The position numbers and the translations under genes are program-made. The notes below the pieces were generated by a model. The model was not told the origin of the DNA. It did not search any database and saw nothing but the letters and a program-made list of their open reading frames with translations. From assembly GCA_964411865.1 (NCBI GenBank), contig CAYPNO010000001.1, positions 13,197-77,196 of the forward strand: a stretch of DNA of 64,000 nucleotides. The letters run 5' to 3'. This document shows, piece by piece, positions 46,475-64,000 of this stretch. Each line of letters starts with the position of its first letter. The first letter of the stretch is position 1. Origin of the DNA: an uncultured Desulfuromonas sp. (GTDB taxonomy: Bacteria > Desulfobacterota > Desulfuromonadia > Desulfuromonadales > Desulfuromonadaceae).

Positions 46475-46505
46475 AAAAAAAGAGCGCCAGCCGAAACTGG
46501 CGCCC
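46475..46505 (-). terminator. Rho-independent terminator after the first OmcS-like gene
   Basis: The minus strand reads GGGCGCCAG TTTCGG CTGGCGCTC TTTTTTT, about 70 nt downstream of the stop at 46578. Confidence 0.8.
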
Positions 46506-48219: not shown

Positions 48220-48798
48220 TCACAGGGGAGGGTTAAGCAAACCGTTCAGCAATTCTCGGTGGCGTTTCATTATTTCACGGACGCGCTCATCGTCTGGCAT
48301 ATCCAGCGTCGCATGGAGTTCATCAAGCGATTCTGCAGCGGCAACAATGCGCGCATGCATAAAATCCAGGGTGAGGTTCACCTCATTCGCCACCTCTTCG
48401 AGGCAGTCGTTCTGGCGCAGTTTAACCCGCGGTTTCAGACTTCCACTCCGGACGTGCTTGAGGGTGCGTTCGATATTGTAAAGGGGGCCTGCAATCTTCT
48501 GCGGCAGAAACAGCGCCAACGCCAAGCCCCCTAACAAACTCACCCCCACGCCAGAGAGAACCACGGGCAGCAACAGGTCACTTACACGACGCAGCTTGAT
48601 GTGAGCATCATAAAAGGTTGTAATAGTTTCATGCCTGGCATAGAAATACAGCACTAGCGCCGCTACTAACGCACTGAGCAATACCACCCCAAAGATACGC
48701 CACATAAGCCAGCGCTGAAACTCTGCCTTAACTCCCAGATTCAGGGACTTACGTTGATAACCCGCTGAGGATTTATTCTTGTTATCTGTGGAAAACAT
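48220..48798 (-). CDS. Two-TM protein with HAMP-like domain and no recognisable output domain
   Basis: 192 aa. TM segments IFGVVLLSALVAALVLYF and LLLPVVLSGVGVSLLGGLALALF, followed by LPQKIAGPLYNIERTLKHVRSGSL...EEVANEVN (HAMP-like). Confidence 0.65.
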   Translation of the reverse strand: MFSTDNKNKSSAGYQRKSLNLGVKAEFQRWLMWRIFGVVLLSALVAALVLYFYARHETITTFYDAHIKLRRVSDLLLPVVLSGVGVSLLGGLALALFLPQKIAGPLYNIERTLKHVRSGSLKPRVKLRQNDCLEEVANEVNLTLDFMHARIVAAAESLDELHATLDMPDDERVREIMKRHRELLNGLLNPPL

Positions 48799-48830
48799 AC
48801 GATCTCTCCGTTCGTGTTTGTATTTTTACT

Positions 48831-50084
48831 TTAGTAGTTTTCGTGGCAGCTATTGCACAATTTCTGCCTGGACTTAAAGCGTAGGCGGTAATGGTCATCC
48901 CCAGCGTGGATCTCATGGCAAGTCATGCAGCTTATACGCCCGTCCGGCAGCAAGTGCAGCTCCTCAGACACCTTCATCCCCACAGGAGGGACAATATCCA
49001 CGGGATGCGACATAGGGCCAAAAAAATCGGGGTGACAGGCACGACAGGCCGAGTAATTGGTGAAGCGTGATTCCGCCATATCTGGATGATAATCCGGACG
49101 CTTGGAGGGGATCAATCCTCCCTGGTGCTCATTCACCCCACGCAGTGACGTAGCGACAGGTTCAACACTCTTGAGCGTTCCGACAGAAAGCGTAATAGGT
49201 TGACTTGCCTCTACTGCAAAAAAATAACATGGCACACCTGAACAATCACCACGATACAGGGCCATATCAGTTTCGAGGGTGCAGCCGCCACTACGTGGAG
49301 CCTCCTCAAAAGCAGACGTATGAGCCAGATCAAATTCATACACTTGCGACCGCTGCGTTCTGCCGCTTACATCGTGAACCTCCAGATACAAACTATAGCT
49401 GGTATCACGCTCCAGACTCGAAATACTTACTTCAATTTCTGTCTGATATACGGAGCCGGTTTCTACCACTCGCCCAGGGTCATCTGCATGCTGCAGATAT
49501 ATTTTCCCGCGCAGCGGAACACTGCTGTTGCAGCGCAGCACCAGCGTATCGGAATAGATAGGATCTCTCCGTAACGTCACTTTAGACAGGTCAAAAGGGG
49601 CTGCCTCATGCGTTGGGAGGAGCTCTAGTTGCTCAAGGGGAGGAAGTGGCACTATATACTGGTGCTCATCGCGGCACTGATCCCAGATCTCAACCACCAA
49701 CTTGCCTTGAATTTCAGTGGTTTCTACTGGGAGAATAATGTGGCGCGACGGCTGATAGCAATCCTGTATCCAGTCGACATCTACCGAACGTATATGCGTA
49801 GGAATACTAGCTGATGGTTCGACCACCGTAACCTCAGGAGTTACCTCTTTTCGGCCTGGACCTTGCCCCTGGACATGACAGACGCCGCAGGCACCATCTC
49901 GGTAAGGAGCGTGGACAAATAATCGGGACTGTTTTGAGCTCAACTCTTTAGCATGACAGTCTCGACAACCTGCATCAGCATCTACATCTGCGCCACTAGC
50001 TGGCTGCGCACTAATCCAAAACATTACGCTAATGATAAACACAATGACAATAAAGATTGCTATCACACGTTGCATGTGAGCCAT
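48831..50084 (-). CDS. Pentahaem c-type cytochrome with a large non-haem central domain
   Basis: Signal anchor. CRDCH and CGVCH at the N-terminus, about 270 haem-free beta-rich residues, then CRACH, CMTCH, CNSCH at the C-terminus. Confidence 0.8.
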   Translation of the reverse strand: MAHMQRVIAIFIVIVFIISVMFWISAQPASGADVDADAGCRDCHAKELSSKQSRLFVHAPYRDGACGVCHVQGQGPGRKEVTPEVTVVEPSASIPTHIRSVDVDWIQDCYQPSRHIILPVETTEIQGKLVVEIWDQCRDEHQYIVPLPPLEQLELLPTHEAAPFDLSKVTLRRDPIYSDTLVLRCNSSVPLRGKIYLQHADDPGRVVETGSVYQTEIEVSISSLERDTSYSLYLEVHDVSGRTQRSQVYEFDLAHTSAFEEAPRSGGCTLETDMALYRGDCSGVPCYFFAVEASQPITLSVGTLKSVEPVATSLRGVNEHQGGLIPSKRPDYHPDMAESRFTNYSACRACHPDFFGPMSHPVDIVPPVGMKVSEELHLLPDGRISCMTCHEIHAGDDHYRLRFKSRQKLCNSCHENY

Positions 50085-50100
50085 TCCTCAATAAGATAAA

Positions 50101-51591
50101 TCAGGGACGAAAAATACCAGAGCCAGCGTGACGTTGCTCCACTAGGAGCAAGCGCCGACCAGGCGTGGGCAAAATTATATGTTGGACAACGCGCCTGGAT
50201 ATTGAATCTATTTGCAAAAGATGTACCCCGTCACCCGAAAGGGCATAAACACTGGACGTAACCGGACTATAAAGCATGTCTGCCACGGGGAAAGGCAGGG
50301 TTAGTTGCCCCATTCGGGTCATATCCCGCAGATTAAGCCAGATCAGAGAGTTGCGCGTGCCGCTTCCTATCGCGACCAGCACCTGGTTACGCACCACCAG
50401 CACTTGCTGTGGCGGTGCCGCACATAAATACTGTGCCTGCAGGCTGAACTCCGGTAGCGCATAGCTATGCACCTCATTTATCCGTTCCAGCGCTAGAATT
50501 ACGCGGTTGCTGGTGCTGTCAATATCATATTCAGACGAACCAGCCATATCCGCGACACGATACGCGCTGCTATGGCGGCGATTAGCACCACTCTGTGGGT
50601 CGAATAGATACACACCATCCGCGGCGCTTACCACGATGAGCTCACCCTCTCCTCCATTACTGAAGGTCTCGCCTGCAGCAGTATATTTTTGCCGCAAAAT
50701 TTGGGTGGGGGAAAACCCCGCAACATATATATTTTGCTCCCCATTGCGACGCCCGATGCTCACTAGACGGTTGCCGCCGCTGTCGGTAATAAAAAAGGTG
50801 GGATCTCCGCCAGAGGTAGCTGTCGCCTCCATGGCTGGAGCAAATTCGATGGCGTGCTCTACCAACGGCAAGCCGAGGCGATCCAGCACGCGCCAACTGC
50901 CCCTTTCGCGCAGGGTCATGGAGGTGGGAGCCAGCCCCCAAATCCCCTCATCTTCAAGCAGATACCAATCGTTCCACTGCTCCTGCAGCCCAATCGCAAC
51001 CTGGGTGTGGAGGTTATCGCTGCGCAGGAGCAGCACCTCGGTCCCCCCTCCACCCAGAACCGCAAGCAGGTCACCGGTATAGGGAGGTTGCGCTACATCC
51101 AAGTGCCACGAGCCGTTCCAGTTTGGCGTTGGCGTACCTTCCTGTGCGCGTGCGCCCGCAGGCGATGCATTGAGCCACAACTGTAAACACACGCGCTCAC
51201 CCGCTTCGAGGCGCGCTAAACCCGTGGTCACGTTCTGGGTTGTGATTGTATCACCTTCGGCCAAGGCGATGCGTAGGTGTGGATACAACCCCGGCGCCAG
51301 CAAGCTGCCGGCTAAATAGCGCTGCCCGTCAGGGTGCTTCTCCTCAGCGGGATCGCGCTCCAACGGCAACCACACCTCCGCCGTGGCGTCATACACCTCC
51401 ACTTCACGGATAGCGGCCGCAAGGGGGGCAATCTGTCTCTCCGCGCCATTTAAATACAGATAGATCCCTGTCTGCTCTAGCGTCGCATCGGTACTGAAGG
51501 AGGTGAAACCCCCGTGGGAATGAAGCCCGACTTGATTACAGCCGAGGCAACCCAAGGTAAGGAGCAGAGCACCGAGATAGATTAGGCGCAT
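50101..51591 (-). CDS. Probable lipoprotein with beta-propeller-like repeats
   Basis: MRLIYLGALLLTLGCLGC is a lipobox-like signal. Repeated short beta-strand/turn segments (FFITDSGGNRLVSI, LIVVSAADGVYLFD, VYALSGDGVHLLQID). Start set to ATG 51591, with GAGGA 9 nt upstream. Confidence 0.65.
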   Translation of the reverse strand: MRLIYLGALLLTLGCLGCNQVGLHSHGGFTSFSTDATLEQTGIYLYLNGAERQIAPLAAAIREVEVYDATAEVWLPLERDPAEEKHPDGQRYLAGSLLAPGLYPHLRIALAEGDTITTQNVTTGLARLEAGERVCLQLWLNASPAGARAQEGTPTPNWNGSWHLDVAQPPYTGDLLAVLGGGGTEVLLLRSDNLHTQVAIGLQEQWNDWYLLEDEGIWGLAPTSMTLRERGSWRVLDRLGLPLVEHAIEFAPAMEATATSGGDPTFFITDSGGNRLVSIGRRNGEQNIYVAGFSPTQILRQKYTAAGETFSNGGEGELIVVSAADGVYLFDPQSGANRRHSSAYRVADMAGSSEYDIDSTSNRVILALERINEVHSYALPEFSLQAQYLCAAPPQQVLVVRNQVLVAIGSGTRNSLIWLNLRDMTRMGQLTLPFPVADMLYSPVTSSVYALSGDGVHLLQIDSISRRVVQHIILPTPGRRLLLVEQRHAGSGIFRP

Positions 51592-51606
51592 GGATATCAT
51601 TCCTCT

Positions 51607-52980
51607 TTAAAAAGTCTTTCTGGTACCACCCTTTTTGAGTGGTACTGTCGCAGGCCATTCCCCTGCCGGGTTGGGCACAAACGAGCCGTGATAGTGGCAA
51701 ATTTCACAGCGAATAGCAGGGGGCCTTCCTCCCCCGCCGTCGGAGCCCTCCGCATAATGACACCCGCATCCGGAGACTTGCGATCCCGCATATGGGCTTA
51801 AATTCCCCTGGCCGTGATGCTGCAATTTCCAGTCATTGACGCTGCCTGTACCCAGCATCGAATCATCCTTATGGCACTGGCGGCATTGATTACCGCGTCC
51901 GTCGCTTTCGCTGGCGGTGATAGTCAGTGGCTCACCATTAATGGAGCGCCGTACTAAAAATGGATAGGGTGAACCGTGGGGCTCATGACAGTCGAGGCAA
52001 CTGAGCACATAGTTGCTTTTTCCTCCGGAAGCGTACGGTTCGCGCAGCCAAGTTTCCCCTGTACGGGAGGACTGACCGTGCTTGTCCCCCCCGGTTGAAC
52101 CATCTGTATTGCTCCAGTTGATCATGGTAAGGTAGTCACGCTTATTCCTACCGTTGATGGCAGGCTTGTCTACCCCATGACAATCGTTGCAAAAAGTTAC
52201 GTAGTCGGGAACCAGATCGGGAGCAGAATTGAGTATACCCCCCGGTTCGTATCTCGTTGTGGAATGGCTGAAGAATGGGGCCTGATACCCACCGTATTTG
52301 TTCATGGTTTCGTCGATGTCACCACCGCCGTCGCCCCACAGATTCTCGTGATCAGACGGAAGAGAGATGGCAGTGAAAGTCGGATCTTTTACCGCGCTTA
52401 TATTGCGCCGAGCTCGGTGCGGGTTATGACAGGCCACACAAGGGTTTGAATCTTCTTTGAACCAGGCAAAGTTCTGTGCCGCATACTCTTGGATACCCAA
52501 CAGGTTGTGGTATGAATTCTCCGCGCCGCTGGTGTGGTTGAAATGCTGTAGTATCCCTTCGTCGGTCCCTGCATCGTAACCACCAAAGGTTTCTGCGTAG
52601 TCATGATTTAACAGTACACCGCCCACTTGTTGGGAAGAAGATGCCGCATGGCACTGAAAACAAAAATTATCCTCCTGGGCATAAGTAGCAGCCGCTGCTG
52701 CGCGATTGAAATTTGCACTGAACAGGGCAAACCCACCGGCAGTGGCGCTGACCGGAGCTGGTTGTTCTCCGCCGACACTGGCATGCTGCTCATGACAGTG
52801 GGCACAGTTGCCCTGAGTATATGCATCTGGCATGCTGGTGCGTAGCACTCCATGAGAGGGATCGCCGTGGGCTGAATCTGCATAAGCCCCAGCATACACA
52901 CAAGAGGTGCCCAAAAGGAAAGCAACGACAACAAGGCAAATCCTCAGACCGATAAACACCCACACATCTCGCGTTACCAT
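51607..52980 (-). CDS. Multihaem c-type cytochrome (7 CxxCH plus one CGCH)
   Basis: Signal anchor. CAHCH, CFQCH, CVACH, CNDCH, CLDCH, CRQCH, CEICH, plus CGCH at 51757-51768. Trimmed to the ATG at 52980, 13 nt after the upstream stop. Confidence 0.8.
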   Translation of the reverse strand: MVTRDVWVFIGLRICLVVVAFLLGTSCVYAGAYADSAHGDPSHGVLRTSMPDAYTQGNCAHCHEQHASVGGEQPAPVSATAGGFALFSANFNRAAAAATYAQEDNFCFQCHAASSSQQVGGVLLNHDYAETFGGYDAGTDEGILQHFNHTSGAENSYHNLLGIQEYAAQNFAWFKEDSNPCVACHNPHRARRNISAVKDPTFTAISLPSDHENLWGDGGGDIDETMNKYGGYQAPFFSHSTTRYEPGGILNSAPDLVPDYVTFCNDCHGVDKPAINGRNKRDYLTMINWSNTDGSTGGDKHGQSSRTGETWLREPYASGGKSNYVLSCLDCHEPHGSPYPFLVRRSINGEPLTITASESDGRGNQCRQCHKDDSMLGTGSVNDWKLQHHGQGNLSPYAGSQVSGCGCHYAEGSDGGGGRPPAIRCEICHYHGSFVPNPAGEWPATVPLKKGGTRKTF

Positions 52981-52993
52981 ACAACAAACCTCA

Positions 52994-54142
52994 TTAATTT
53001 TTGTTGCTGTGACATTCGGTACACAATCCACCCGTAGCACTGCCAGCGTAGTTCCAGCGCATCGCTTTGTAATATTTACTGCCGTGGGCGCGGTGGCAAG
53101 AGACACATGTGACGATGGTGTCTTTGCTAAAAGTCACACTATTTTTTACCGTACTCACGGTTTCACTCGCCACCGGCACGGCCTGATTGTAGCTTTTTCC
53201 CGCACCGCCATAGTTGCGGTACTCACTTGAAACACCAGTTTTACCCATATCGTAATCAGTAGGATGACGTAACCACGGCGATGCAGTACCAACATTCCCT
53301 GCACCACTGTGATACGCACCGTGGCAGCGCGCACACAGGCTACTAATGGTGTTGGTGTTACTGCCCCCAGGATTATCTACCCCCTTATACTGGTTATGCG
53401 CGTCTGCTGTCGGGTGGAACTCCCAGTTTGGGTCTTCATAGCCCTCTATCCCCACCAAAAAACGGTATCCAGCTGCCGGAGCATTGCCTGGGTTAATACG
53501 CGCCCCGCCGAGATCGCCATGATGCGCCCCGTGGATGGCACTGGTCTGTGATGCTTCGGCATGGGTACCGTGGCAACCATATACACCAGCGCAGGTAACT
53601 TGCTGCTCGCTCGGCCATATCCCCCCGCCTGGTCTACTGCCGTCAGCAGCAGCACGGCCTCCATCAAAGCCGGGTGGGGTATGGAGGATACTGTCAGCAT
53701 TGGTCAAACCAGCGACATTGTGACCTGTCGCATCCCCACCAACAGCTCCGTAAACTGGCTGAGTCACCCAGTAAAAGCTCCCTCCCGCCAGGGTGGTGGT
53801 ATCGGTTCCGGTACCATTTGCACCATAGGTGGGAGCGGTGGACGTCACAAAGGGGGTATCGCCACCGAACTCATTGGTGCCGGTATGGCATCCGCCGCAA
53901 TCGCTGCGCAATAATGCCTGGTGCGGCCCACCTTCATCCCACTCAGAGAGAACACTATTGTTCTGGCTATAGTGCATGGAGTGACAGTCGGAGCATGGAC
54001 CACTGACGCGCGCATGCACGGGCGCAGCCCAAAACGGCAGATACACAAGCAACGCCAATAGACCAGCAACAAGATCCAGCCTTGCACACAGCGCCGTGCG
54101 GATACGGTGGCAGCCGTTTATGTGTGTGCCTGATCCAGACAT
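52994..54142 (-). CDS. OmcS-family hexahaem c-type cytochrome (paralogue 2)
   Basis: CSDCH, CGGCH, CAGVYGCH, CARCH, CVSCH, CTECH. Shares GGSFYWV, GHNV, YRFL, WLRHPTDYDMG, CVSCHRAHGS and a C-terminal CTECHSNKN with paralogue 1. Start ATG 54142, with AAGGGAG 5 nt upstream. Confidence 0.8.
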   Translation of the reverse strand: MSGSGTHINGCHRIRTALCARLDLVAGLLALLVYLPFWAAPVHARVSGPCSDCHSMHYSQNNSVLSEWDEGGPHQALLRSDCGGCHTGTNEFGGDTPFVTSTAPTYGANGTGTDTTTLAGGSFYWVTQPVYGAVGGDATGHNVAGLTNADSILHTPPGFDGGRAAADGSRPGGGIWPSEQQVTCAGVYGCHGTHAEASQTSAIHGAHHGDLGGARINPGNAPAAGYRFLVGIEGYEDPNWEFHPTADAHNQYKGVDNPGGSNTNTISSLCARCHGAYHSGAGNVGTASPWLRHPTDYDMGKTGVSSEYRNYGGAGKSYNQAVPVASETVSTVKNSVTFSKDTIVTCVSCHRAHGSKYYKAMRWNYAGSATGGLCTECHSNKN

Positions 54143-54187
54143 AAGCACTCCCTTAAGTTCCTTAGCTTCTGTACTGTTCAAACGCTA

Positions 54188-55069
54188 TTAGCGCCTGAAC
54201 AAATCCACGCAGCGATTGACCTCGTCGAGAATCGCAAGAGCTCCACTGCCGCGAGCAGAATCAAGGAACAGGATCTGACGCGGGGCACTGAAACGCCCAA
54301 GGCGGTTGCCGCGTGCCCCGATGCTGTACAAGTGGCGCCCTGCAGGGGAAAAAATCAGCACCTGACACAACCCACGATCGGCTATGAACAATTGCCCCTG
54401 CGGGCTGCGCTCCAGCGCGGACGGGCGTTTAAGATCGTACTGTAATGCGATGCGCTCCCCTTTACTTTCGCTTGCGCCACTGGGATCGACCTGCACAACA
54501 CTGGCGTCAGCCTGTAACAACCAGAGCTTTCCTGATGCGCTCACAACATCAACGCAATTACTCCCATAGCGTCCGCGCACGCTGAGGCTGTCATCCAGCG
54601 CGAGGACATTACCGCTGAGGCGGTCGAGAACCATCAAACCCACTTCCGGATGCCACACCACCTTCTCTGGCAGCATGGCGTTTGCCCCCGTGAGGGGAAA
54701 AGGGAAACGTTCTAGGCGCTGCTCTTCGGGGACTAGTCGCGCCAACGCATTGGCTTTGCGGTCTACGAACCAGAAGCGTCCGGAGCGCTGCAGAGTGATG
54801 GAGACTGGGGTACCAAGATCGCCTCCGGCATCGAAGTCGGAGAGATGCTGCCCGTCGAGATTGAAGGCATGCAGTTTCCCTGCCAGTCCGTCCGCTATAT
54901 AGATGCGCTCCCGCTGTGAATCAAAAACCATCGCCAGGGCAGACTCAAGACGCACGCCGGATTGCGGATCGGGAGCGCGCCACTGGCTGATCCATGCAGC
55001 AGCGGAGGCCGGTATTGGGAAAATACAACAATAGAGCAGCAGAGCGATTATTACCTGTGAATATCTCAT
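54188..55069 (-). CDS. NHL-repeat beta-propeller protein, secreted
   Basis: Signal peptide MRYSQVIIALLLYCCIFPIPASA. NHL-like repeats (RIYIADGLAGKLHAFNLDG, LFIADRGLCQVLIFSPAG). The track ORF extends spuriously into the upstream gene, so it was trimmed to the ATG at 55069. Confidence 0.75.
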   Translation of the reverse strand: MRYSQVIIALLLYCCIFPIPASAAAWISQWRAPDPQSGVRLESALAMVFDSQRERIYIADGLAGKLHAFNLDGQHLSDFDAGGDLGTPVSITLQRSGRFWFVDRKANALARLVPEEQRLERFPFPLTGANAMLPEKVVWHPEVGLMVLDRLSGNVLALDDSLSVRGRYGSNCVDVVSASGKLWLLQADASVVQVDPSGASESKGERIALQYDLKRPSALERSPQGQLFIADRGLCQVLIFSPAGRHLYSIGARGNRLGRFSAPRQILFLDSARGSGALAILDEVNRCVDLFRR

Positions 55070-55079
55070 AGTCTTACCT

Positions 55080-56270
55080 TTAATATCCCGGATGGCACGG
55101 CAGACACAGGCCGCGCTCGCGCCCTCCGCGTAGATTATGTTCAAACATAGTTCCGGTACACGGCGAGTGACACGAGATGCAATCCATCGGAGTGCCGGTG
55201 CGGGGGTCAAGTGAGTCCTCACCGATGGGATGGGTAAAGGTGCTGTGTTCACCGTGACAGGATTCGCAAGCTCCTGCCATGGCGCCGCGCAGCATATAGG
55301 GCTCATCGGAGCCGTGTCCGGCGTGGCAGTCGCTGCAGTGGTTGGCCTGCGGATGAACATGGAGCGCTTGCTTGCGGCGCTCGAGCTTGTCGGCGTGGCA
55401 GCTGCGACACACGCTACCGGCAATCCCTTTTAATAGCCCAGTCTGACTGCTGACATGTGGGCTGTGGCATGCAGTACAGCTCGAATTTCCTTTGCTTTGC
55501 AGATGGGTGTGCACTTGCTGGAACTGGGGCAACACTTGAGAGTGACAGGAGAGGCAGCGCCCATCTGCGCTGGAACCTTTGTGACAAGCAGAGCAGTTGC
55601 CTGTGGCAAAGGGCTTATGTTGCAGAGGGCGCAGCAGGGATTTCTCTGTACTGGCATGGGGATGATGACACTCCAAACAGTTCATCCCCTGCGCCTTGCG
55701 CCCGCTGTGACGCTGCTGCCAAGCAGAATTGGTTTTATGACACCCGAGGCACAATTCAGAATCCTCGCTTCGCAGCAAGCCCTGATGCTCACTGCCGTGG
55801 ACGGCATGGCAACTGGCACACTGCCCTTTTTTAAAGGGGGCGTGCCGTTTTCCTTGAGTGACGCTCAGGCTGGTATGACATGCGGCGCACACCTCTTTCT
55901 GCTGATCCTTGAGCAACCCTTTGAAAGCACTGGCATGGGGAGCATGACAACTGGTGCATTCCCCCTTATGTACCGGGCTGTGGGTGTAGGCGCTCTTTGT
56001 CCAGGCTTCTGTTACCTCGGCATGGCAGCCGTTGCACAACTGCGCCTCCGATTGCTGCAACAAGCCAGCGTGGCGGGAGGCGTGCAGACTATGGCAAGAG
56101 TCGCAGCGGTTACGCGCCACAGGTTCATGCTCATAGGTCCCTTTGAAGTTGATGCTGTCATGACACTGGACACAGTTAAGCGCCAGACTCACGCAGGCAG
56201 GAAAGAGCACAAGTGCAATTACTGTGAGGAGGATCTTCCACCTGCTGCATCTGTAATTTCGATACATCAT
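55080..56270 (-). CDS. Multihaem c-type cytochrome, 16 CxxCH
   Basis: I counted 16 CxxCH motifs in about 396 aa, with an N-terminal signal anchor. The start ATGATG overlaps the TGA of the upstream gene. Confidence 0.88.
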   Translation of the reverse strand: MMYRNYRCSRWKILLTVIALVLFPACVSLALNCVQCHDSINFKGTYEHEPVARNRCDSCHSLHASRHAGLLQQSEAQLCNGCHAEVTEAWTKSAYTHSPVHKGECTSCHAPHASAFKGLLKDQQKEVCAACHTSLSVTQGKRHAPFKKGQCASCHAVHGSEHQGLLRSEDSELCLGCHKTNSAWQQRHSGRKAQGMNCLECHHPHASTEKSLLRPLQHKPFATGNCSACHKGSSADGRCLSCHSQVLPQFQQVHTHLQSKGNSSCTACHSPHVSSQTGLLKGIAGSVCRSCHADKLERRKQALHVHPQANHCSDCHAGHGSDEPYMLRGAMAGACESCHGEHSTFTHPIGEDSLDPRTGTPMDCISCHSPCTGTMFEHNLRGGRERGLCLPCHPGY

Positions 56271-58189
56271 TTGTTTTTCTCCGCATGGCAGGACGCGCAT
56301 TTGCCGTCGGCAAACGGGGTGTGCTGAACCGGGAATAACAGTGAAGCTGTCGGACCGCCGTGGCTGTCGTGACAGGTGGTACAGTTCTGCACCGAGAGCG
56401 GTATGTCGCCGTGGCTTTGAGCCATTTCAGGGGTATCGACTTGATGGCAACTGGTGCAAATCTGCGCAAGCGGACGTACGAGTAGAGCGGCATGGTCTCC
56501 GCCATGGCTGACATGGCACGCAGCACACTCCCCCTCTACGGCAGGCTTATGCCCACTACCTGCCTCCCAGAAATCATCTACCTGCTGATGACATCCGAGG
56601 CACAATCCGGGTTTTTCGCGGCGCAAATATCCCGAGATAGCACTGCCATGCGACTGATGACATGCGCTACAGCGCTGGGTGGCAAAGGGCTGATGCTCAT
56701 ATGCATTGGCGCCAGGCTTGGCCGTGGCGTGACAGGTAAAGCACGCCTCCCCTTCGGGCTGATTGAGCAAAAATGGATGCTCACCTGCGTGGGGCTGATG
56801 ACAATCACGACATTTACCGCGCTCGAACGGCGGATGCCCGTAACCTGCCCCATAGTCAGCTGTAGTGTTTTCATGGCATTGCAAGCATAGCTGTAGCTCT
56901 ACTGCCTCCAGCAACGCAGGCTGTGCTGCCCCATGCGGAGCATGACATGCGCTGCATTTACCCTGAAGCAGAGGAGCGTGTACCGACGGTGCTGCCATAT
57001 CTTGCCGTACCCCAGAATGGCAGCTACTGCAGAGCTTATCTTGCGCAGTTACAAGCAAGGCGGGGGCACCCGCCGCGTGCATGCGATGGCAGCGGCGACA
57101 GTCATTTTGTTGTACAGGGGGATGCTTCACCGTGGTTGCGCGCTCTGGATAAGCGTGACATTTTAGACAAACCGCGCTAGCTGGGGCACGGAGCAGATTG
57201 TCGGCTCCCGCTGCGGCATGATGCGGGGCGTGACATTCGAGACAGTCGCTCTCACCCGCGTCAGGGTGATGCGCCCCGCCAACGCGGATCTCCGGATGAC
57301 ACCCAAGGCACAGGCTACTGCTATCAGTTTTAAGCAGAGACGGAGAATCACTGGCGTGCGGCACATGGCAGGCGGAACAGTTGCCCTCCACCACCGGAGC
57401 ATGCCCCTGATTGAGCTGCGCCTGTTGCTGCACCGTGGCATGACAAAGGGAACAGAGTCGATCTGCGGGGGCTTGGGTGACAGCACTGTTGGACTGGTGA
57501 CAATCGGTGCAATCCCCATTGGCAACAGGTGTATGTACAGAACGCCGCCACAGGGCTGGAGTTCTACCACCATGTGAATCATGACATTCAGAGCAACCTG
57601 CAAGCGGAATCCCTCCATGGGCGGCATTCAAACCCTCGGGTGCGTGACAGGTCGCGCACAGTAGGGTCTCGCTCTGAAGTAGAAGCATAGCTGCGCTGCT
57701 ACTGTGGGGGGCATGGCAGGTGCCACACCCTTGCTGTACGGGGGGATGGATCTGGGCTACCTTGGAGTCAAATCCGGTGCGTGGATGGCATTCAAAACAC
57801 AACTGTTGCGGTGCTACAGGGTGTAGCTTTGCATGCTCGCTCCCGTGGGGGATATGACACCCAGCGCAGTTACCTTCTTTCACCGGTTGGTGCACATTGC
57901 TGAGCAATTGTGACGGACGGAGCTGTTCATGGCAGGAATAGCATACCTCCGGCACCGGTTTGAGCAGATACGCTCCTCCGATAATACCGTGATTACGGTG
58001 ACAAGCGCTGCAATTGTTCTTTTGTGCCGGCTCATGGGGAACCGACTGTTGCGCGATAGATTTAAATTCTTCGTGACATTCAAGGCAGTTTTTCTGGATG
58101 GCGAAGCGTCGCTGCTTGCGTGGGGTACAGGAACACATCAACGCCATCAACACCATCGCCGTTAGTATAAAAAATAGATTACGCCTCAT
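56267..58189 (-). CDS. Multihaem c-type cytochrome, 26 CxxCH
   Basis: I counted 26 CxxCH motifs in about 640 aa, arranged as repeating c7/c3-like units (...H.PV..G.C..CH.PH...). Signal with a possible lipobox (LMCSC). Start ATG 58189, with GGAGG 6 nt upstream. Confidence 0.88.
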   Translation of the reverse strand: MRRNLFFILTAMVLMALMCSCTPRKQRRFAIQKNCLECHEEFKSIAQQSVPHEPAQKNNCSACHRNHGIIGGAYLLKPVPEVCYSCHEQLRPSQLLSNVHQPVKEGNCAGCHIPHGSEHAKLHPVAPQQLCFECHPRTGFDSKVAQIHPPVQQGCGTCHAPHSSSAAMLLLQSETLLCATCHAPEGLNAAHGGIPLAGCSECHDSHGGRTPALWRRSVHTPVANGDCTDCHQSNSAVTQAPADRLCSLCHATVQQQAQLNQGHAPVVEGNCSACHVPHASDSPSLLKTDSSSLCLGCHPEIRVGGAHHPDAGESDCLECHAPHHAAAGADNLLRAPASAVCLKCHAYPERATTVKHPPVQQNDCRRCHRMHAAGAPALLVTAQDKLCSSCHSGVRQDMAAPSVHAPLLQGKCSACHAPHGAAQPALLEAVELQLCLQCHENTTADYGAGYGHPPFERGKCRDCHQPHAGEHPFLLNQPEGEACFTCHATAKPGANAYEHQPFATQRCSACHQSHGSAISGYLRREKPGLCLGCHQQVDDFWEAGSGHKPAVEGECAACHVSHGGDHAALLVRPLAQICTSCHQVDTPEMAQSHGDIPLSVQNCTTCHDSHGGPTASLLFPVQHTPFADGKCASCHAEKNK

Positions 58190-59783
58190 GCGCCACCTCC
58201 GCATGAACCTTCTTCCATACGCGCTGATCTACCTCGATGGTGGAGGCCTCTCGCAGGCGTGAATGCAGGAGTTCTAGCGCCGCATGGCGCTTCTGTTGTT
58301 CCAGTTCGGTGCGCAGCTGTGCGGATACCTGCTCCAGTGGCTGTATCTGCTCCTGCGCACGATGAATAAGCCTAAAGAAATACACCCTATCGCCAATATC
58401 GAGCGCTCCGCTCTGACCTGGAGACAGCCCTTGGAGTGCGACCTGCATAGCTTCGGGTTCGTCCTGCGGATTAACCCAACGCGTGGATACCCCCTCTGGT
58501 GCCAGTGGGCGCACCACTTCATCGAACGCCATCCCTTGTTGTAATTTCTGCCTCAGTTGTTGCGCCAGCCTGACTTCACGCGTCTCAATTTGTGCCATAT
58601 AGAGCACTTCTGGGGTGGTGAAACGTTGCAACTGTTCTACGTACGCCTGCTCTATCTCGGCTGCACTCGCTTCTAGTTCCTGGGGTTTCAGCACCATCTG
58701 CTCCAATTCCCTAACCAAACGGTATTGAGTATAAAAGGAGTAGACCTCTTTGAACGGAACGCGTTGTTCGTAGTGACGTTGCAACGCTTCGAAACCCGTG
58801 AGTGTTTGCGCCACCATATCGCGCACCACTATATCCAGCGCTTGGGGATAGGTAAAATCATTCCGCGTGCTGGCGCGTTTTTCACATTCTTCCAGCGCGG
58901 ATTGATGTAGTAATTCTAAGGGGATATCTCCACCATCAAAAGAAATACCGGTCTTGCCTTCAAGATCAGAAGGGACTCCATCCTCGCTCAAAGCTTCAAT
59001 ATGCTCAGTATAAATTTTTACTGTGTATTTTTCCTTTAATTGAGCCATTAAATCACGATTTAGCTGCGCGCGCTTCTCTTTGCGCCACTGCTTTTCTAGG
59101 GCGGAACGCACGTGGGCGAAGTGTTTAGAATCAAAAGCGTGCTCCTCCTCCACAAATATCAGGTTCCACTGGTCGTGCCATGCGAATGGAGCACCCCAGT
59201 AGCCGGCCTCCAACTGGACTATCTGTTCCCATACGACAGCATCTAGACGTTCGGCATAGGCTTGTTCTAGGCGTGCCAGTCGTTCATTAGGCTCAAATCC
59301 CATCTCTGTCAAAACGTCCTGCGCTGACTGTGTAACAACCGCAGCATGAAACTCACGCGCCTGCTCCTCAGTATCAAGGTGCACAGCCAACAAGGTAAAA
59401 CGGGGGAGATATCTGCCTGAATACAACTGGCGCAGCTCTGCTTCAGACGGGGTCCCAACCTTTCCGAGGATCTCCTCCTCGCGCAATAGCATAAGTGAAC
59501 GAACCTTGAGGAACACCCCCACCTTGCGCTGATATTCAGGGCGAGTATATAACTCCATGGCCTCAGCTTCCTGCACCTTAAGCTGAAAATCTATGAATGA
59601 ATCAGGAGTCTCTGGTACCTCCATCTCCGGCTCACGCCATTGCTGCCACCAGGAAACATACTCGGCATTAGAGTATTCCTGCTGGTTTATAGTTACCAAA
59701 ATGTTGCTATCCCAGAACCAAGCAAAAGCTGGATTGGTCCAGAAGAGCAGGGTGAGGAGTATATATCCTAAACATAAACGCAT
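58179..59783 (-). CDS. SurA/PpiD-like periplasmic chaperone with degenerate parvulin-like domain
   Basis: Signal peptide LLTLLFWTNPAFA. Long helical SurA-N-like regions. The C-terminal LSPGQSGALDIGDRVYFFRLIHRAQ resembles the end of a parvulin PPIase domain, but catalytic residues are not evident. Confidence 0.6.
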   Translation of the reverse strand: MRLCLGYILLTLLFWTNPAFAWFWDSNILVTINQQEYSNAEYVSWWQQWREPEMEVPETPDSFIDFQLKVQEAEAMELYTRPEYQRKVGVFLKVRSLMLLREEEILGKVGTPSEAELRQLYSGRYLPRFTLLAVHLDTEEQAREFHAAVVTQSAQDVLTEMGFEPNERLARLEQAYAERLDAVVWEQIVQLEAGYWGAPFAWHDQWNLIFVEEEHAFDSKHFAHVRSALEKQWRKEKRAQLNRDLMAQLKEKYTVKIYTEHIEALSEDGVPSDLEGKTGISFDGGDIPLELLHQSALEECEKRASTRNDFTYPQALDIVVRDMVAQTLTGFEALQRHYEQRVPFKEVYSFYTQYRLVRELEQMVLKPQELEASAAEIEQAYVEQLQRFTTPEVLYMAQIETREVRLAQQLRQKLQQGMAFDEVVRPLAPEGVSTRWVNPQDEPEAMQVALQGLSPGQSGALDIGDRVYFFRLIHRAQEQIQPLEQVSAQLRTELEQQKRHAALELLHSRLREASTIEVDQRVWKKVHAEVAHEA

Positions 59784-59815
59784 GTAACGTTCTCCTGTAG
59801 TTGTTTATCGGCGAA

Positions 59816-60427
59816 TCAGGAGTTACACCCGACCTGCCCTTGTTCAACCCATTTCGCGATTAACTCCCGCGTCATTCTTGCCGCAAGCTCTGTGTAACTA
59901 TAAACCACGCCATAATGCATAAGGCTGCGGTAATCGTCACCCCGGCGTGAATAGAACACCTGACTAATCAGGCTCCCGTCTACTTTAAGCAGTTCGATCT
60001 GCAGAGTTATAAGTGGCACTTTTGTATTACTGTCAGCGTACTCTTGAGTGAAGGTAAGCACCTTGCCCCGAATGTAGCCATCAACCTGCAGCTCTCCCGC
60101 CATGCCCTCGAAAACGGAAGCCGGAGCACTGTATATCTCGCTAGGGAAAGTCTGACTTCGCCGTAAAACACTTCGCATATCCGCAGGGTTGCACACCTGC
60201 ATCTGGGGCGCAGCAATAAGCTCGGTGACCATGGTGCGATAACATAAGGTTGCGGCAGTACTGTTTTCAGTTTCATTCAGCAGTGGCAAAAGCGCCACGC
60301 GACACAAACGTGGCTGCAGTTGTGGTGCCACAGTGTATACATACTCCCCACCCCTGGTGCATCCGACTATACTGCAGAGCAGCAACAGAACCACTGTACG
60401 CGCCACTATTAAAAACCGCTGTTCCAT
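59816..60427 (-). CDS. Lipoprotein, CsgG-N/LpoB-fold-like
   Basis: Lipobox LLCSIVGC. RVALLPLLNETENS motif right after the signal. 203 aa. Confidence 0.65.
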   Translation of the reverse strand: MEQRFLIVARTVVLLLLCSIVGCTRGGEYVYTVAPQLQPRLCRVALLPLLNETENSTAATLCYRTMVTELIAAPQMQVCNPADMRSVLRRSQTFPSEIYSAPASVFEGMAGELQVDGYIRGKVLTFTQEYADSNTKVPLITLQIELLKVDGSLISQVFYSRRGDDYRSLMHYGVVYSYTELAARMTRELIAKWVEQGQVGCNS

Positions 60428-62010
60428 ACCAATTTTTGCTCTTCCATTTCCCCAGGCTCAGTTCCTATTGAATCTGCAGCAATATACTGGCCTACCGGGG
60501 TGGTTTTAGTCCAGTATCTGTTCCCCACGCTATCCTGCACATAGAGTTGACAAAAAAGTTCCTGCTCTTGCGCTACTTTCTGTGGCAGGACGATCTTGGC
60601 TGGCAGTGTTGTACCAGAAATTTTGTACAGCTCATTGTCATTACTGTCAGTTATATACACTTTCCACGCACGAGATTCCGCAGCGGGGTTTTTGTCGCGC
60701 AACAGGAGCGCGGTTTTCCCCTCCTTATGCACTTTGTCCAGCGTCGCTAGCTCTTCCTGCGCTTGGTGTAGATATACTTCGGTGCTTGCAGTTGTGGCGA
60801 ATCCCGCCACATCCTGGATATGAAGGTTTACCGTGTAGACACCTGATGGGAGTGGATACCTACGCGCGTCGATACCAGCCCAGTTTAGGGCTGCCGGCAG
60901 ATCACCGCTGCGCTGCTGGGATAAAACCTGGTTTTTCCTACTATCGAGAACCTCAAATGTCCATGTATCAACGGGGCGCTTGTTCTGCATGCGGGGACGC
61001 AGAGTCAGGCGACGACTAAACACCGGCGCACTGTGGGCGGCATCAGCTACAGCTGAAGATTCCAACTCCAAATGCACCGCCTCGCTTACCGCCTCTATCT
61101 GAGTCACTGTGGTCAAAGTCAGCGCAGATTCAACCACAGTGTGTTTCAGACGAACAGGGTAAACACCTGGCGTGATGGGAGCTTCAAGCTGGGCTACATA
61201 GATATCTCTCAGTTCACCATTCTCAGAACTGGGATGCAGGTCAAAATTCCTCCCCCCAAGTTCAAGAGTAAACGCACTAATATCGGCAACTTCGGTGCGG
61301 ATTTTTATCCGGCATCTAATACTGCCTCCACAGCGCACCAGGGTCTGGGAACAGTCAATCACCTCGACGGCATAGTTTGGATTCATCGTAATGGTGCCAG
61401 GGGTGAAGCCATCAGGGGAGATCCGCCCAAGCGAGTCGACCAGATCCTTTGTGGCCTGCCGCAGCAGACCTTCCAAATCCATATCTTGCTGTAATCCCAG
61501 GAGGGCAATCTGGCCAGCAGCGGAATAGGTGTGTGCTTCACCCCACACCGGAGTGCCGCTGGCGGCATGGTACAGTTGGAGTAAAAGCCCCAGCGTTGGG
61601 GTATTTCCCCCAGTCGATTCGACAATGCTGACACTCAAAAGATTGGTGCAACCTAAACGTATACCCAGTTGGCGACAGGCGAAACGGTCGACTTCACCCA
61701 GATCGCGCAGGCGTAACGCTCGAACTTCCTCCATAACCCGCTCGGGCTCAACCAGATCAAATCCGCTGGAAAGAAGGGCCGCATGCAATGTGCGCTGCAG
61801 TGCTTGATCCCAAGAGGACACCCCCGCACTGAGATCTGCGACCGGCAACAGCGCAATTACCGGGCGTGATTCCTGAGCGTGCCCGACTCCGGGAACGCTC
61901 AGAAACAGCGCTGCAACCCATATACAGATGCACAGTCTTATATATGTGCTGGGAATAACAGCTGCCAAGGCAATTCTCCTCAATGTGCGATGTCCCGTTT
62001 TCAGCTTCAC
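60409..62010 (-). CDS. Secreted protein with N-terminal CsgG-N/LpoB-like module and C-terminal Ig-like beta-rich region
   Basis: Signal ...LFLSVPGVGHA, then VIALLPVADLSAG. The C-terminal region of about 330 aa is beta-rich (e.g. TWTFEVLDSRKNQVL...SGVYTVNLHIQD). GTG start with a weak RBS, so the start is uncertain. Confidence 0.6.
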   Translation of the reverse strand: MKLKTGHRTLRRIALAAVIPSTYIRLCICIWVAALFLSVPGVGHAQESRPVIALLPVADLSAGVSSWDQALQRTLHAALLSSGFDLVEPERVMEEVRALRLRDLGEVDRFACRQLGIRLGCTNLLSVSIVESTGGNTPTLGLLLQLYHAASGTPVWGEAHTYSAAGQIALLGLQQDMDLEGLLRQATKDLVDSLGRISPDGFTPGTITMNPNYAVEVIDCSQTLVRCGGSIRCRIKIRTEVADISAFTLELGGRNFDLHPSSENGELRDIYVAQLEAPITPGVYPVRLKHTVVESALTLTTVTQIEAVSEAVHLELESSAVADAAHSAPVFSRRLTLRPRMQNKRPVDTWTFEVLDSRKNQVLSQQRSGDLPAALNWAGIDARRYPLPSGVYTVNLHIQDVAGFATTASTEVYLHQAQEELATLDKVHKEGKTALLLRDKNPAAESRAWKVYITDSNDNELYKISGTTLPAKIVLPQKVAQEQELFCQLYVQDSVGNRYWTKTTPVGQYIAADSIGTEPGEMEEQKLVWNSGF

Positions 62011-62035
62011 CTTTTAACCCCTGGTTTTAGCCTTT

Positions 62036-62617
62036 TCAGTACGTCAGGGTAAGAAGTATATCTTCTATCAATTGTCTAGCCACCTGATGCAAATTATCGC
62101 TTTCAAGTCCGAAAATGCGGTCTTTGGTGCTGTAACCGGAGCCAACGTGGCTCGCTTGCCACAAGATTTTTCCGCTGTTAATTTCTACCAGGCGCAGGGT
62201 CAGCGCAACCACTGGATAGGAATAACTTCCGTTGCGTTCAAGACTGTATGCTTCAACCGAGCCGGCCAGATATGCCTGGACGCCAAACTCACGCCCTAAC
62301 CTACGCGCTGTTGCCTGTGGGATGGAGGTCTTATCTTCCCCTACAATTTCGTCATTAAGAAAACGGCGCAGGTCCCCTTTTTCCAGAACCTCAAAAAATC
62401 CCATGCTCATCACTTGGGTACTCAGCAGATCACGCACCTGCTTTTCTACAAAGCGCTCCGCCGTATTATTTTCAAAGGGAAGCACAGCAACCCTTTTCAC
62501 AAAGCCGGTCGCAAGTGCTGGATCGGTGTGATAGCTTGGAACCGCTGCACACCCCGCTAAAAACATCAGCATAATTATTGTCAGAACCACCCGCACTTTA
62601 TGCCCATCACTCAACAT
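62036..62617 (-). CDS. Lipoprotein, CsgG-N/LpoB-fold-like
   Basis: Lipobox MFLAGC. Motif order RVAVLPFENNTAE / GFFEVLEKGDLRRFLNDE / AYLAGSVEAYS / VALTLRLVEINSGKILW parallels the periplasmic domain of E. coli CsgG as I recall it. At 193 aa it is too short to contain the CsgG pore hairpins. Confidence 0.65.
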   Translation of the reverse strand: MLSDGHKVRVVLTIIMLMFLAGCAAVPSYHTDPALATGFVKRVAVLPFENNTAERFVEKQVRDLLSTQVMSMGFFEVLEKGDLRRFLNDEIVGEDKTSIPQATARRLGREFGVQAYLAGSVEAYSLERNGSYSYPVVALTLRLVEINSGKILWQASHVGSGYSTKDRIFGLESDNLHQVARQLIEDILLTLTY

Positions 62618-62728
62618 GGTTTTATATCGCCTTTCACGCTTCGCCAGCCCGCATCCGGTACTGGTTCTGCAATAAACATACCTTCAAATAAGTCCTGCAT
62701 CTTCTGTTCGGGATTAGGTAAAGGCACT

Positions 62729-64000
62729 CTAGAAATTGTAACTGGCGTTGGCAGAGTAACTCCACTGGGCCAGATCAGCTGTTGCATACTGCACGCTCTG
62801 GCGCAGACTGAACCGTTGGGTCATTAACCAGATTAACGAGGCTGAATAATTCTGGGTTACGTCATCCTCAAACGTATATGCGGCGGTGGCATTGAACTGC
62901 AGGTCACTGCTAAGGCGCAGTGAAACGCTGGTACTTGCACTCACACTGTCGTCATCACCAGCATAACTAATGCTGGTATTGCTCTGCAGGGTATCAGAGG
63001 GTCGATAGTTAAGATTTAAACCGCCATCGTAAGTAGACGAATTTCCACCTTCGCGTATCGACTCGGTAGAGGTTGAGCCGTAATTTACATACATGGTAAG
63101 ACGTAGACTGGGGCGTAACTGGGTGCTGGTATCTAAGGTCCAGGAGGATGTTGTAGTTTCGCTGTTGTTGAGCATATCTTCGTTTTGAGACCAGCTCCCG
63201 TTCAGACTGGCAGACCAGTCAGGTAAAAGTTGTGCTACAAGACTGGAACTAACGGTATAGGTCCGGTTCTGCAGATCGGAGTCGAGCAGATTTTCACTGC
63301 AGTTAAAACTAAGAGCCGTGGCCAGAGTACTGAGAGGATCCCATTGTGCCGACAGGGTCCAGTTGCGCCCAGTCTCGGTTTCCTGTTTTTCTACCATGGT
63401 TTCATTTTCACTGTAGAGCGCCTGAAAAGAGAGGACTGCGACAGGATGCCATTGAATACCGTAGGTTTGCTGAACTTCTTCAGTTTCTGCCCCCTCCCCG
63501 GGCTCACTCAAATCATATCCATAACTGGCGGTTACAATCCAAGCCTCAAAAGGACGCAGATGCGCATTGGTCTGATATTTATAACGCTTAAAGGTATTGG
63601 TGGTTTTGATTTCATCCCCATCTGCGATAACAGCCCGACTCCAGATGCATTCACTTATCTGCACTGGGTCCCACACTCCCGCCGGTTCATGCAGGACAAT
63701 CTTTACGTAAGGCGCCTTAAGGGGTTGGGCCAGCTCCAATATGAAGCTCCAGCGCTCAAACACCGCATTTTCCTCCCAGCGTCGAGTTGCTCCCACCGAA
63801 CTCTTTGTCCAGTCGCGGTTGTTGTTACTTGTATAGACGCTGGCCTGAAGCTGAGAGCGAAAGAAGGGATCGGGATCCCCCATAAAAACCACTTCAATCT
63901 GATCGATGTCCTGACTATTAAGCCGCGCCGCGATGCTCAAATCCTCATCTTCAGATTCGCTCCACACCTGAGCAGGCACATCTTCGCGACCATCTCCGAG
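62729..64000 (-). CDS. Outer-membrane beta-barrel protein (N-terminus beyond the window)
   Basis: The frame is open to base 64000 (LGDGRED upstream of the track's GTG). The C-terminal roughly 260 aa show alternating hydrophobic/polar strands rich in S/T/N/Y and end in ...WSYSANASYNF, a terminal aromatic that fits an OMP beta-signal. The N-terminal part is a separate soluble-looking domain. Confidence 0.65.
   Translation of the reverse strand, partial: LGDGREDVPAQVWSESEDEDLSIAARLNSQDIDQIEVVFMGDPDPFFRSQLQASVYTSNNNRDWTKSSVGATRRWEENAVFERWSFILELAQPLKAPYVKIVLHEPAGVWDPVQISECIWSRAVIADGDEIKTTNTFKRYKYQTNAHLRPFEAWIVTASYGYDLSEPGEGAETEEVQQTYGIQWHPVAVLSFQALYSENETMVEKQETETGRNWTLSAQWDPLSTLATALSFNCSENLLDSDLQNRTYTVSSSLVAQLLPDWSASLNGSWSQNEDMLNNSETTTSSWTLDTSTQLRPSLRLTMYVNYGSTSTESIREGGNSSTYDGGLNLNYRPSDTLQSNTSISYAGDDDSVSASTSVSLRLSSDLQFNATAAYTFEDDVTQNYSASLIWLMTQRFSLRQSVQYATADLAQWSYSANASYNF

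Follow-up and report, generated by a model that had tools for sequence, protein, structure and literature searches.

The folding, export and anchoring of cytochrome nanowires are a live question, and the closest described relative of the system analysed here is a Geobacter sulfurreducens operon (GSU2493-GSU2504) that lies 3' of omcS and has been named osc, for omcS companion (Shen et al. 2025, Cell Chem Biol 32:239, as cited in PMC13194489). Here, we analyse a stretch of 64,000 nucleotides (the window) from an uncultured Desulfuromonas sp. (GenBank assembly GCA_964411865.1, contig CAYPNO010000001.1, positions 13,197 to 77,196 of the forward strand), whose minus strand carries between 48220 and 64000 a run of genes for envelope proteins and multihaem cytochromes. 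We find that this locus is a Desulfuromonas-type copy of the system published in 2025 and not a new kind of system, and we consider it likely that it acts, in a Desulfuromonas-like bacterium, as an osc-type system for the biogenesis of OmcS-family cytochrome filaments.

The papers that cite the Geobacter work assign OscH to folding, OscE, OscF and OscG (OscEFG) to secretion, and OscD to filament morphology (Shen et al. 2025 as cited in PMC13194489; bioRxiv 2025.10.22.684050). Of the remaining genes, oscC is GSU2501, oscI is GSU2495 and oscJ is GSU2494 (PMC13194489), and a comparative preprint places an eight-gene block, GSU2500-2493, in every Geobacter genome that has a GSU2501-type gene. The current hypothesis for secretion is a 'porin-like pathway' (bioRxiv 2025.10.22.684050), and the route published for charging the filaments runs through PpcA-E (PMC10954620). 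A preliminary description of the Desulfuromonas locus, made by reading the DNA, had proposed that its genes form one export and assembly module for OmcS-like filaments, related to the G. sulfurreducens omcS region, and had stated that it knew of no mechanism established for the genes downstream of omcS. That last statement is outdated, as the osc cluster was described in 2025; the proposed module is strongly supported by profile homology to osc and by synteny with it, and the idea was already in print, since roles had been assigned to the Osc proteins by Shen et al. 2025, as relayed in the citing papers.

Results

For each window protein, we built a family profile hidden Markov model (HMM) from related loci and then matched it to Geobacter proteins. 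The Geobacteraceae loci used for comparison, from G. sulfurreducens subsp. ethanolicus (L080), a close relative (L083) and Geotalea uraniireducens (L084), were reached by a search with the OmcS sequence from the PDB alignment; G. sulfurreducens lay outside the best 80 loci of our genome scan. In G. uraniireducens the gene order is OscC (425 amino acids, aa)-OscD (465)-OscE (741)-OscF (200)-OscG (391)-OscH (588)-OscI (658, with 26 CxxCH motifs)-OscJ (427, with 16 CxxCH)-NHL protein (298). Homologues of all eight accessory genes, OscD to OscK, are common to the window and the Geobacter osc cluster, the E-F-G-H-I-J-K order is the same in the window and in G. uraniireducens, and OmcS-family genes are adjacent in both. 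These one-to-one profile matches to Geobacter Osc proteins, together with the conserved order, identify the locus as an osc cluster and confirm the synteny with the G. sulfurreducens omcS region that had been suspected. All cluster coordinates below are on the minus strand of the window.

The first gene (62729..64000) encodes a homologue of OscE, a large outer-membrane beta-barrel protein. Its 5' end lies beyond the window, since its open reading frame (ORF) stays open up to the window edge; the complete protein, encoded on contig L086, has 690 aa, a signal peptide and a C-terminus ending in ...SYNF, and the window covers about residues 270-690. A divergent gene lies upstream of the barrel gene on L086, so the barrel gene is indeed the first gene of the cluster, as had been described, with the correction that the window holds only this part of it. 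The barrel HMM, built from 39 loci, matches g725 of G. sulfurreducens (E 1.9e-35, residues 313-711) and OscE of G. uraniireducens (E 1e-39). Pfam and NCBIfam matched nothing on the barrel ORF, and the barrel-family profile found no barrel among solved structures at E<=10, MtrB-type porins included, but only a discoidin-like insert; the comparison covered porins with solved structures only, which leaves aside those Pcc porins that lack one. This insert is a weak discoidin/F5-F8 type C/CBM32-like central domain of the barrel family (PDB 2jd9, E 0.012; Pfam matches in 2-3 of 16 members), located at about 62950-63300 in the window and about residues 270-390 of 690, and it may represent a carbohydrate- or ligand-binding element within the barrel.

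Downstream of the barrel lie three genes that had been described as LpoB/CsgG-type, a fold assignment that Pfam, Foldseek and profile comparisons uphold; the last two together correspond to a single Geobacter gene, oscG. The first of the three (62036..62617) encodes a 193-aa lipoprotein (lipobox LAGC) of the LpoB/CsgG/GNA1162 fold with above-threshold Pfam matches to LpoB (34.7 bits) and CsgG (29.6 bits), and its family HMM matches OscF (E 1.8e-41 and 5.6e-44). The next gene (60409..61968) encodes a 519-aa protein homologous to the N-terminal half of OscG (E 1.7e-20 against OscG residues 10-189; 4.5e-40 for the whole protein), which has a signal peptide or anchor only, without a lipobox, and an extra C-terminal region of ~330 residues with one sub-threshold Pfam FlgD_ig (Ig-like) match. 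The third (59816..60427) encodes a 203-aa lipoprotein (lipobox IVGC) homologous to the C-terminal half of OscG (E 9.7e-22 against OscG residues 207-361; 6.9e-29 for the whole protein), on which Pfam and NCBIfam matched nothing. Geobacter OscG (392 aa, L080:20055-21233) consists of two LpoB-like domains, and these are separate genes in the window (59816-61968) and wherever we saw them in the window's clade; among OscG homologues in the protein database, some with a length of 500-640 aa bear Y_Y_Y or PKD domains.

An AlphaFold2 (AF2) model of the 519-aa protein, computed with an alignment of OscG homologues, is confident only for the N-terminal domain, residues ~30-185 (predicted local distance difference test (pLDDT) score 83-97); past residue ~185, including the weak FlgD_ig region, it is uninterpretable, probably because the OscG alignment was forced there. 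Foldseek matched the N-terminal domain to GNA1162 (TM score 0.64-0.70), to PelC, including the PelBC structure (TM score 0.5-0.6), and to LpoB (TM score 0.63), with further matches to the TolB N-terminal domain, FlgT and CsgG. Folds of the GNA1162/PelC/LpoB/CsgG type are used by lipoprotein rings below outer-membrane exporters, and the modelled domain would fit the idea of a channel-like OscEFG.

The following four genes continue the block. The first (58179..59783) encodes the OscH homologue, a 534-aa predicted periplasmic chaperone with one PPIC-type prolyl isomerase domain (Pfam Rotamase_2, E 9e-13), whose family HMM matches OscH of two Geobacteraceae (E 5.8e-38 and 3.9e-37), in keeping with the chaperone label it had been given. 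In Geobacter, OscH and OscG each reportedly interact with OmcS, and OscD reportedly undergoes haem-dependent splitting. After the OscH gene come those of the OscI homologue, a 640-aa cytochrome with 26 haem motifs (56267..58189), and the OscJ homologue, a 396-aa cytochrome with 16 (55080..56270), both with many Pfam Paired_CXXCH_1 units. Their HMMs match OscI (E 2.5e-184) and OscJ (E 2.9e-94), which likewise have 26 and 16 CxxCH motifs, and the count of 26 is kept in 58 of 63 homologues of the larger protein. The last of the four (54188..55069) encodes a 293-aa NHL-type beta-propeller with a signal peptide. Its family HMM matches g298 of G. uraniireducens, a Pfam NHL protein in the OscK position (E 1.3e-35), and the protein itself gives weak Pfam propeller matches (Vgb_lyase, SGL) and a partial match to an NCBIfam NHL family. 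The partial NCBIfam match and the profile match to OscK uphold its earlier description as an NHL propeller; the letter OscK is a provisional assignment from gene order.

Directly after this block lies the presumed filament subunit, a 382-aa hexahaem cytochrome of the OmcS family (52994..54142), and a second OmcS-family hexahaem paralogue is encoded further downstream (46578..47726). A family profile of 32 sequences aligned the 382-aa protein with the OmcS structure (PDB 6EF8) at E 1.9e-15 over positions 36-349 of 364, which supports its first description as OmcS-like, and the family HMM matched OmcS (5.4e-29), OmcT (3.4e-28) and OscC (8e-21). For the second paralogue the HMM matches were OmcT (7.8e-37) and OmcS (3.1e-31), and hhalign aligned it with the family of the first at E 1e-140. 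The relation emerges from profiles: in single-sequence phmmer searches the 382-aa protein did not find OmcS, and no useful PDB match came up for any of the four smaller cytochromes or for the peptidyl-prolyl isomerase (PPIase). The 382-aa cytochrome has more than 739 relatives.

Each paralogue has six candidate haem sites, five CxxCH motifs and a C-x5-CH motif (CAGVYGCH in the first, CAGTYGCH in the second) at the position of OmcS haem 3. At this site OmcS has CSSCH, whereas an invariant C-x5-CH of the form CAGxYGCH stands here (window 53578-53601 in the first paralogue), with C184, G186, Y188, G189, C190 and H191 invariant in the 32 sequences. We know of no C-x5-CH motif that has been described for the attachment of c-type haem. 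Thirteen histidines are invariant and one nearly so in the same sequences, enough for six bis-His haems. H57, in a CHxMH motif, is invariant as well and aligns with the CHTMH histidine of OmcS 6EF8, which we take to be His16, the ligand of a haem in the next filament subunit; 51 of 52 and 55 of 56 members of OmcS-like families carry CxxCHxMH.

Four further genes lie between the two paralogues. A heptahaem cytochrome of 457 aa (51607..52980) has an OmcS-like six-haem core and a C-terminal haem extension: hhalign aligned it with the OmcS-like family at a probability of 98% (E 3e-13, 275 columns), with the six haem motifs in one-to-one correspondence and CxxCHxxH included. In 26 of its 34 homologues there are eight CxxCH motifs, which the C-terminal extension makes octahaem proteins; the window protein has seven. 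Since the heptahaem protein is thus a remote member of the OmcS family, the cluster encodes three OmcS-superfamily proteins, comparable to OmcS, OmcT and OscC in Geobacter.

The next product, a 496-aa beta-propeller lipoprotein (50101..51591; lipobox TLGC), is a divergent homologue of OscD. It has almost no BLAST relatives, and Pfam and NCBIfam matched nothing on it; it sits where related loci have OscD-like genes, and an OscD-family HMM of 41 sequences matches it end to end (E 2e-19; hhalign 99.2%). Its N-terminus reads LGCLGCNQ, with CLGCN in place of the CSGCH of G. sulfurreducens OscD. An N-terminal CxxCH is present in only 3 of the 41 OscD-family sequences, all of G. sulfurreducens type, so that only G. 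sulfurreducens seems to load OscD with haem.

The last two genes of the stretch encode a 414-aa pentahaem cytochrome (48831..50075; Pfam Paired_CXXCH_1 / Cytochrome_C7), with five CxxCH motifs and a haem-free middle part of ~270 aa, and a small inner-membrane protein of 192 aa (48220..48798) with two predicted transmembrane (2-TM) segments (~32-54 and ~75-98) and a HAMP-like cytoplasmic stretch. The pair is kept in 11 of the 35 long loci described below, where homologues of the 2-TM protein follow the pentahaem gene. The preliminary description had called the 192-aa product a HAMP protein, a label we drop: neither Pfam nor NCBIfam matched the protein, Pfam HAMP (PF00672) gave nothing even at E<=1, hhalign against the HAMP domain of the window's own histidine kinase gave E 0.054 and a probability of 1%, and only topology and sequence pattern are HAMP-like.

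The block and the OmcS-like genes are conserved together. Relatives of the C-x5-CH cytochrome turned up in at least 559 genomes when one genome per species was scanned, the C-x5-CH motif alone retrieving at least 559 species-level genomes, and 79 loci were retrieved. Among the 35 cytochrome-seeded loci of at least 20 kb, genes 2 and 3 are present in all 35, genes 4-6 in 34 and gene 7 in 33, and the barrel (gene 1) is present in 27, a number limited by flank length. Gene order is constant across these loci, with the OmcS-like gene placed after the block in some, as in the window, and ahead of it in others, as in Geobacter. In the reverse test, a metagenome scan seeded with the NHL family (80 contigs), an OmcS-like gene lies immediately 3' of the NHL gene on 50 of 50 contigs with enough downstream DNA, and all seven upstream genes are present on 19 of 19 contigs with enough upstream DNA; downstream, an OscD-like gene is found on 19 of 20 contigs and an OmcS-core hepta- or octahaem gene on 18 of 20. 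These counts, which uphold the expected co-conservation of the accessory families with OmcS-like genes, describe the C-x5-CH clade and not all NHL or OmcS proteins, because both seeds came from that clade. Altogether, more than 100 loci found from two different seed genes show synteny between the block and OmcS-like genes.

By the label of their metagenome-assembled genomes (MAGs), these loci are assigned to Desulfuromonadales, Desulfobulbaceae, Thermodesulfobacteria, Desulfofervidaceae and Hydrosulfovibrio, and the window's nearest relative is a MAG of Desulfuromonas sp. (L055; 58-93% aa identity over shared genes). Cultured organisms among the carriers are Thermodesulfobacterium hydrogeniphilum DSM 14290 (L053, L060), Hydrosulfovibrio ferrireducens CB1MN (L079) and Thermodesulfobacteriota bacterium B35 (L039). 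The same cluster also occurs on L017, L011/L054 and L063, which are binned as Heimdallarchaeota, Chloroflexota and Aquificota MAGs; these placements are probably binning errors or lateral transfers.

ORF calls on the window confirm 13 minus-strand genes in 48220-64000, at the places where they had been described. Downstream of gene 1, independent gene calls on a contig identical to the window (L088) give products of 193, 519, 203, 534, 640, 396, 293, 382, 457, 496, 414 and 192 aa, with junctions, in transcription order, of 111, 67, -19, 32, -11, -4, 10, 45, 13, 15, 25 and 32 nt. They reproduce the overlaps of 19, 11 and 4 nt, the gaps of 10-45 nt and the single 111-nt gap reported before, and the 67-nt junction becomes 25 nt if the third gene begins at GTG (533-aa start). 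A 58-codon ORF in the public gene calls (62611-62787, minus strand) spans the 111-nt gap; it is probably spurious, as its translation has no signal peptide, transmembrane segment or Pfam match. The CxxCH counts of the cytochromes are 26, 16, 5, 7 and 5, and with the C-x5-CH of the 382-aa OmcS-like protein the total is 59-61 haem sites, in agreement with an earlier estimate of about 60. With the exception of the 2-TM protein, all cluster products start with a signal peptide, a lipobox or another N-terminal anchor. They contain no Walker A motif, and Pfam gave no match in them to an ATPase or to a part of a type I, II or V secretion system (T1SS, T2SS, T5SS), as the preliminary description had stated.

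That description had also treated the 13 genes as one operon. Tight same-strand junctions support a single unit, and its boundary has to be moved: the same-strand run extends beyond 48220 to the second OmcS-like gene, a PAS-GGDEF gene and a CHASE4 histidine kinase gene, and the transcription unit probably reaches 46578. The sole strong minus-strand terminator, an intrinsic-terminator-like hairpin (46482..46505; 10-bp stem, 7 of its pairs GC, and then a run of T), lies directly after the second OmcS-like gene, and no strong internal minus-strand terminator was found inside the cluster. A gap of 493 nt separates the 2-TM gene (48220) from the second OmcS-like gene. Beyond the hairpin, a PAS-GGDEF diguanylate cyclase (45313-46446, minus strand) and a CHASE4-HAMP-PAS histidine kinase (42892-45060, minus strand), both assigned by Pfam, are possible regulators. 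Both genes also follow the second OmcS-like gene in L012, L016 and L055, and L043 has the GGDEF gene only; this conservation suggests control of the cluster by c-di-GMP or a two-component system. G+C content over the cytochrome genes (50000-58000) is 0.54-0.575, against 0.42-0.51 in most of the window, which could reflect the codon content of genes rich in Cys, His, Ala and Gly, or a foreign origin.

The rest of the window is ordinary, with gap-pgk-tpi, ilvC, aminotransferase and transketolase genes, a chemotaxis cluster and a nuo-like complex; an Rfam scan of the window found nothing. The chemotaxis cluster (7537-20440, plus strand) is complete, with a CheA-CheW-receiver fusion, three methyl-accepting chemotaxis proteins (MCPs), CheW, CheB, CheR and a receiver-SpoIIE phosphatase, and is followed by an HDOD protein and a hybrid kinase. 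The nuo-like NADH dehydrogenase cluster (27148-38365, minus strand) has four antiporter-like (Proton_antipo_M) subunits and subunits of NuoB/C/D/H/J type, and no NuoE/F/G-type subunit was matched among the window ORFs of at least 150 aa that were scanned.

Discussion

The Desulfuromonas locus is homologous to the Geobacter osc genes, keeps their order and stands in tight synteny with OmcS-like genes. By analogy with the Geobacter work, we propose that it folds, exports, polymerises and shapes OmcS-family filaments. Haem-loaded OmcS-like subunits (52994-54142 and 46578-47726) would enter the periplasm through Sec and be folded or held by the PPIase chaperone OscH, and would then pass the outer membrane through the OscE barrel, whose periplasmic side would be capped by LpoB/PelC-fold rings formed of OscF and both halves of OscG. 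Polymerisation would take place outside the cell, where the conserved CHxMH histidine near the N-terminus should serve as a ligand to a haem in the adjoining subunit, and the OscD propeller lipoprotein would set filament morphology. The preliminary description had likewise joined the barrel and lipoproteins into an outer-membrane conduit, which matches the proposal for OscEFG in the citing papers, and had the chaperone and propellers handle unpolymerised subunits; as those papers have it, folding is indeed the part assigned to OscH, and OscD is assigned filament morphology instead. OscI and OscJ could plausibly act as electron rods in the periplasm at the filament base, with the NHL protein OscK alongside: at ~25 residues per haem, these putative 26- and 16-haem chargers are plausible candidates for spanning the periplasm. 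The preliminary description had given them such a charging role, for which the literature cited here offers no support; the published route is the one through PpcA-E. The OmcS-core heptahaem protein, the pentahaem protein and the 2-TM protein are lineage-specific additions.

Several observations weigh against this proposal. The role assignments of the Osc proteins are second-hand, taken from papers that cite Shen et al. 2025, and a 2025 review terms the secretion model speculative (PMC12307469). In Geobacter, wire formation is known for OmcS only, and its paralogue OscC is listed as periplasmic (PMC13194489); polymerisation by members of the C-x5-CH clade is at present a presumption. The window's OscD homologue has diverged strongly and is without the CxxCH that G. 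sulfurreducens OscD has, the 1017-aa spermine-synthase-like membrane protein of Geobacter is absent from the window cluster, and an AF2 model of the 382-aa cytochrome from the 32-sequence alignment reached a pLDDT of only 42.9, which made it unusable for a fold search.

A different account has some weight, in which the locus makes a conduit of the porin-cytochrome type, with the 26- and 16-haem proteins held by the barrel so that they cross the outer membrane, the OmcS-like, hepta- and pentahaem proteins are monomeric reductases at the surface or in the periplasm, and the lipoproteins and PPIase only assist assembly of the complex. A barrel does occur here together with long multihaem proteins and without an ATPase, and in every genome that has the block, the OmcS-like genes fall into OscC-type or other non-OmcS clades. 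We nonetheless regard such a conduit as rather improbable, and grant it what chance it has because OmcS is the sole proven wire-former and OscC is listed as periplasmic. According to the citing papers, genes homologous to this cluster are proposed to drive the folding and secretion of OmcS filaments; the CHxMH motif of the trans-ligating histidine is invariant across the family; no solved barrel, MtrB-type porins included, shows detectable sequence similarity to the barrel family; and PelC/CsgG-like ring lipoproteins point to the export of a polymer. The possibility that 13 functionally independent cytochrome and envelope genes are neighbours by chance could appeal to the 111-nt gap after the first gene and the 493-nt gap before the second OmcS-like gene, but order is constant in more than 100 loci from several lineages and two seed genes, overlapping or tight junctions are the rule, and a strong internal terminator on the minus strand was not found. 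Synteny leads us to reject this explanation, to which we attach almost no probability.

Beyond the export of a homopolymer, the cluster of the C-x5-CH clade may build a filament-terminated trans-envelope wire, a reading that would involve three elements and that we consider unlikely. The OscI and OscJ rods would span the periplasm, dock at OscE and the lipoprotein ring, and feed the filament base without PpcA-type carriers. The hepta- or octahaem protein, with its donor CHxxH histidine and two added haems, would serve as a base, tip or terminator subunit. Finally, C-x5-CH would be a new kind of attachment motif for c-type haem.

We compared the osc-type system with other known assemblies. The subunit itself is remotely homologous to OmcS (PDB 6EF8/6NEF) over nearly its full length, its five CxxCH sites and the candidate C-x5-CH site standing in the order of the six OmcS haem sites, and both share a signal peptide and the CHxMH after haem 1. 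In contrast, identity is ~26%, the mature length is ~340 aa in the window protein and 407 aa in OmcS, and CAGxYGCH replaces CSSCH; OmcS forms filaments, and the window hexahaem protein is a presumed filament subunit. With exporters of the PelBC/CsgG type (PDB 9H80, 5T11, 4Q79), the N-terminal domain of the 519-aa protein shares the PelC/CsgG fold, and profiles also find an LpoB-like domain in both window lipoproteins (193 aa and 203 aa). PelC forms a lipoprotein ring beneath a beta-barrel, the architecture proposed for OscEFG. The cargo differs, being a folded haem protein for osc and a polysaccharide or unfolded curlin for PelBC/CsgG, and the OscE-like barrel has no detectable sequence relation to PelB.

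The omcE nanowire cluster, which we compared by its description (bioRxiv 2025.10.22.684050), follows the same logic, combining a filament cytochrome with a large beta-barrel, beta-propeller lipoproteins and two multihaem cytochromes. Its subunit is of another family, the tetrahaem OmcE, and that account makes no mention of a PPIase or of LpoB-fold lipoproteins. The MtrCAB and Geobacter Pcc/Ext conduits likewise place an outer-membrane barrel beside periplasmic and outer multihaem cytochromes. The window cluster differs from these porin-cytochrome conduits in adding a chaperone, ring-fold lipoproteins, propellers and OmcS-family cytochromes, and in a barrel family that is unrelated by sequence to any solved structure.

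The osc cluster of Geobacter remains the closest relative. In the window, the OmcS-like gene and OscD lie after the E-K block, whereas in Geobacter they lie before it; OscG is two genes instead of one, the first with ~330 extra C-terminal residues; the cytochromes form a clade of their own, with C-x5-CH at the third haem site; and the OmcS-core heptahaem, pentahaem and 2-TM proteins are extra, the last two having no counterpart in Geobacter osc. The osc machinery is thus conserved gene for gene well outside Geobacter, next to a distinct and very large OmcS-like clade, in host groups that, by MAG label, are tied to metal reduction and to syntrophic oxidation of methane or alkanes. Comparison of the two separates the parts of the system: OscD-K and an OmcS-like gene make up the core, the window lineage dispenses with the spermine-synthase-like protein and with the OscD haem site, and the split OscG, the OmcS-core octahaem protein and the pentahaem protein with its 2-TM partner are specific to the lineage.

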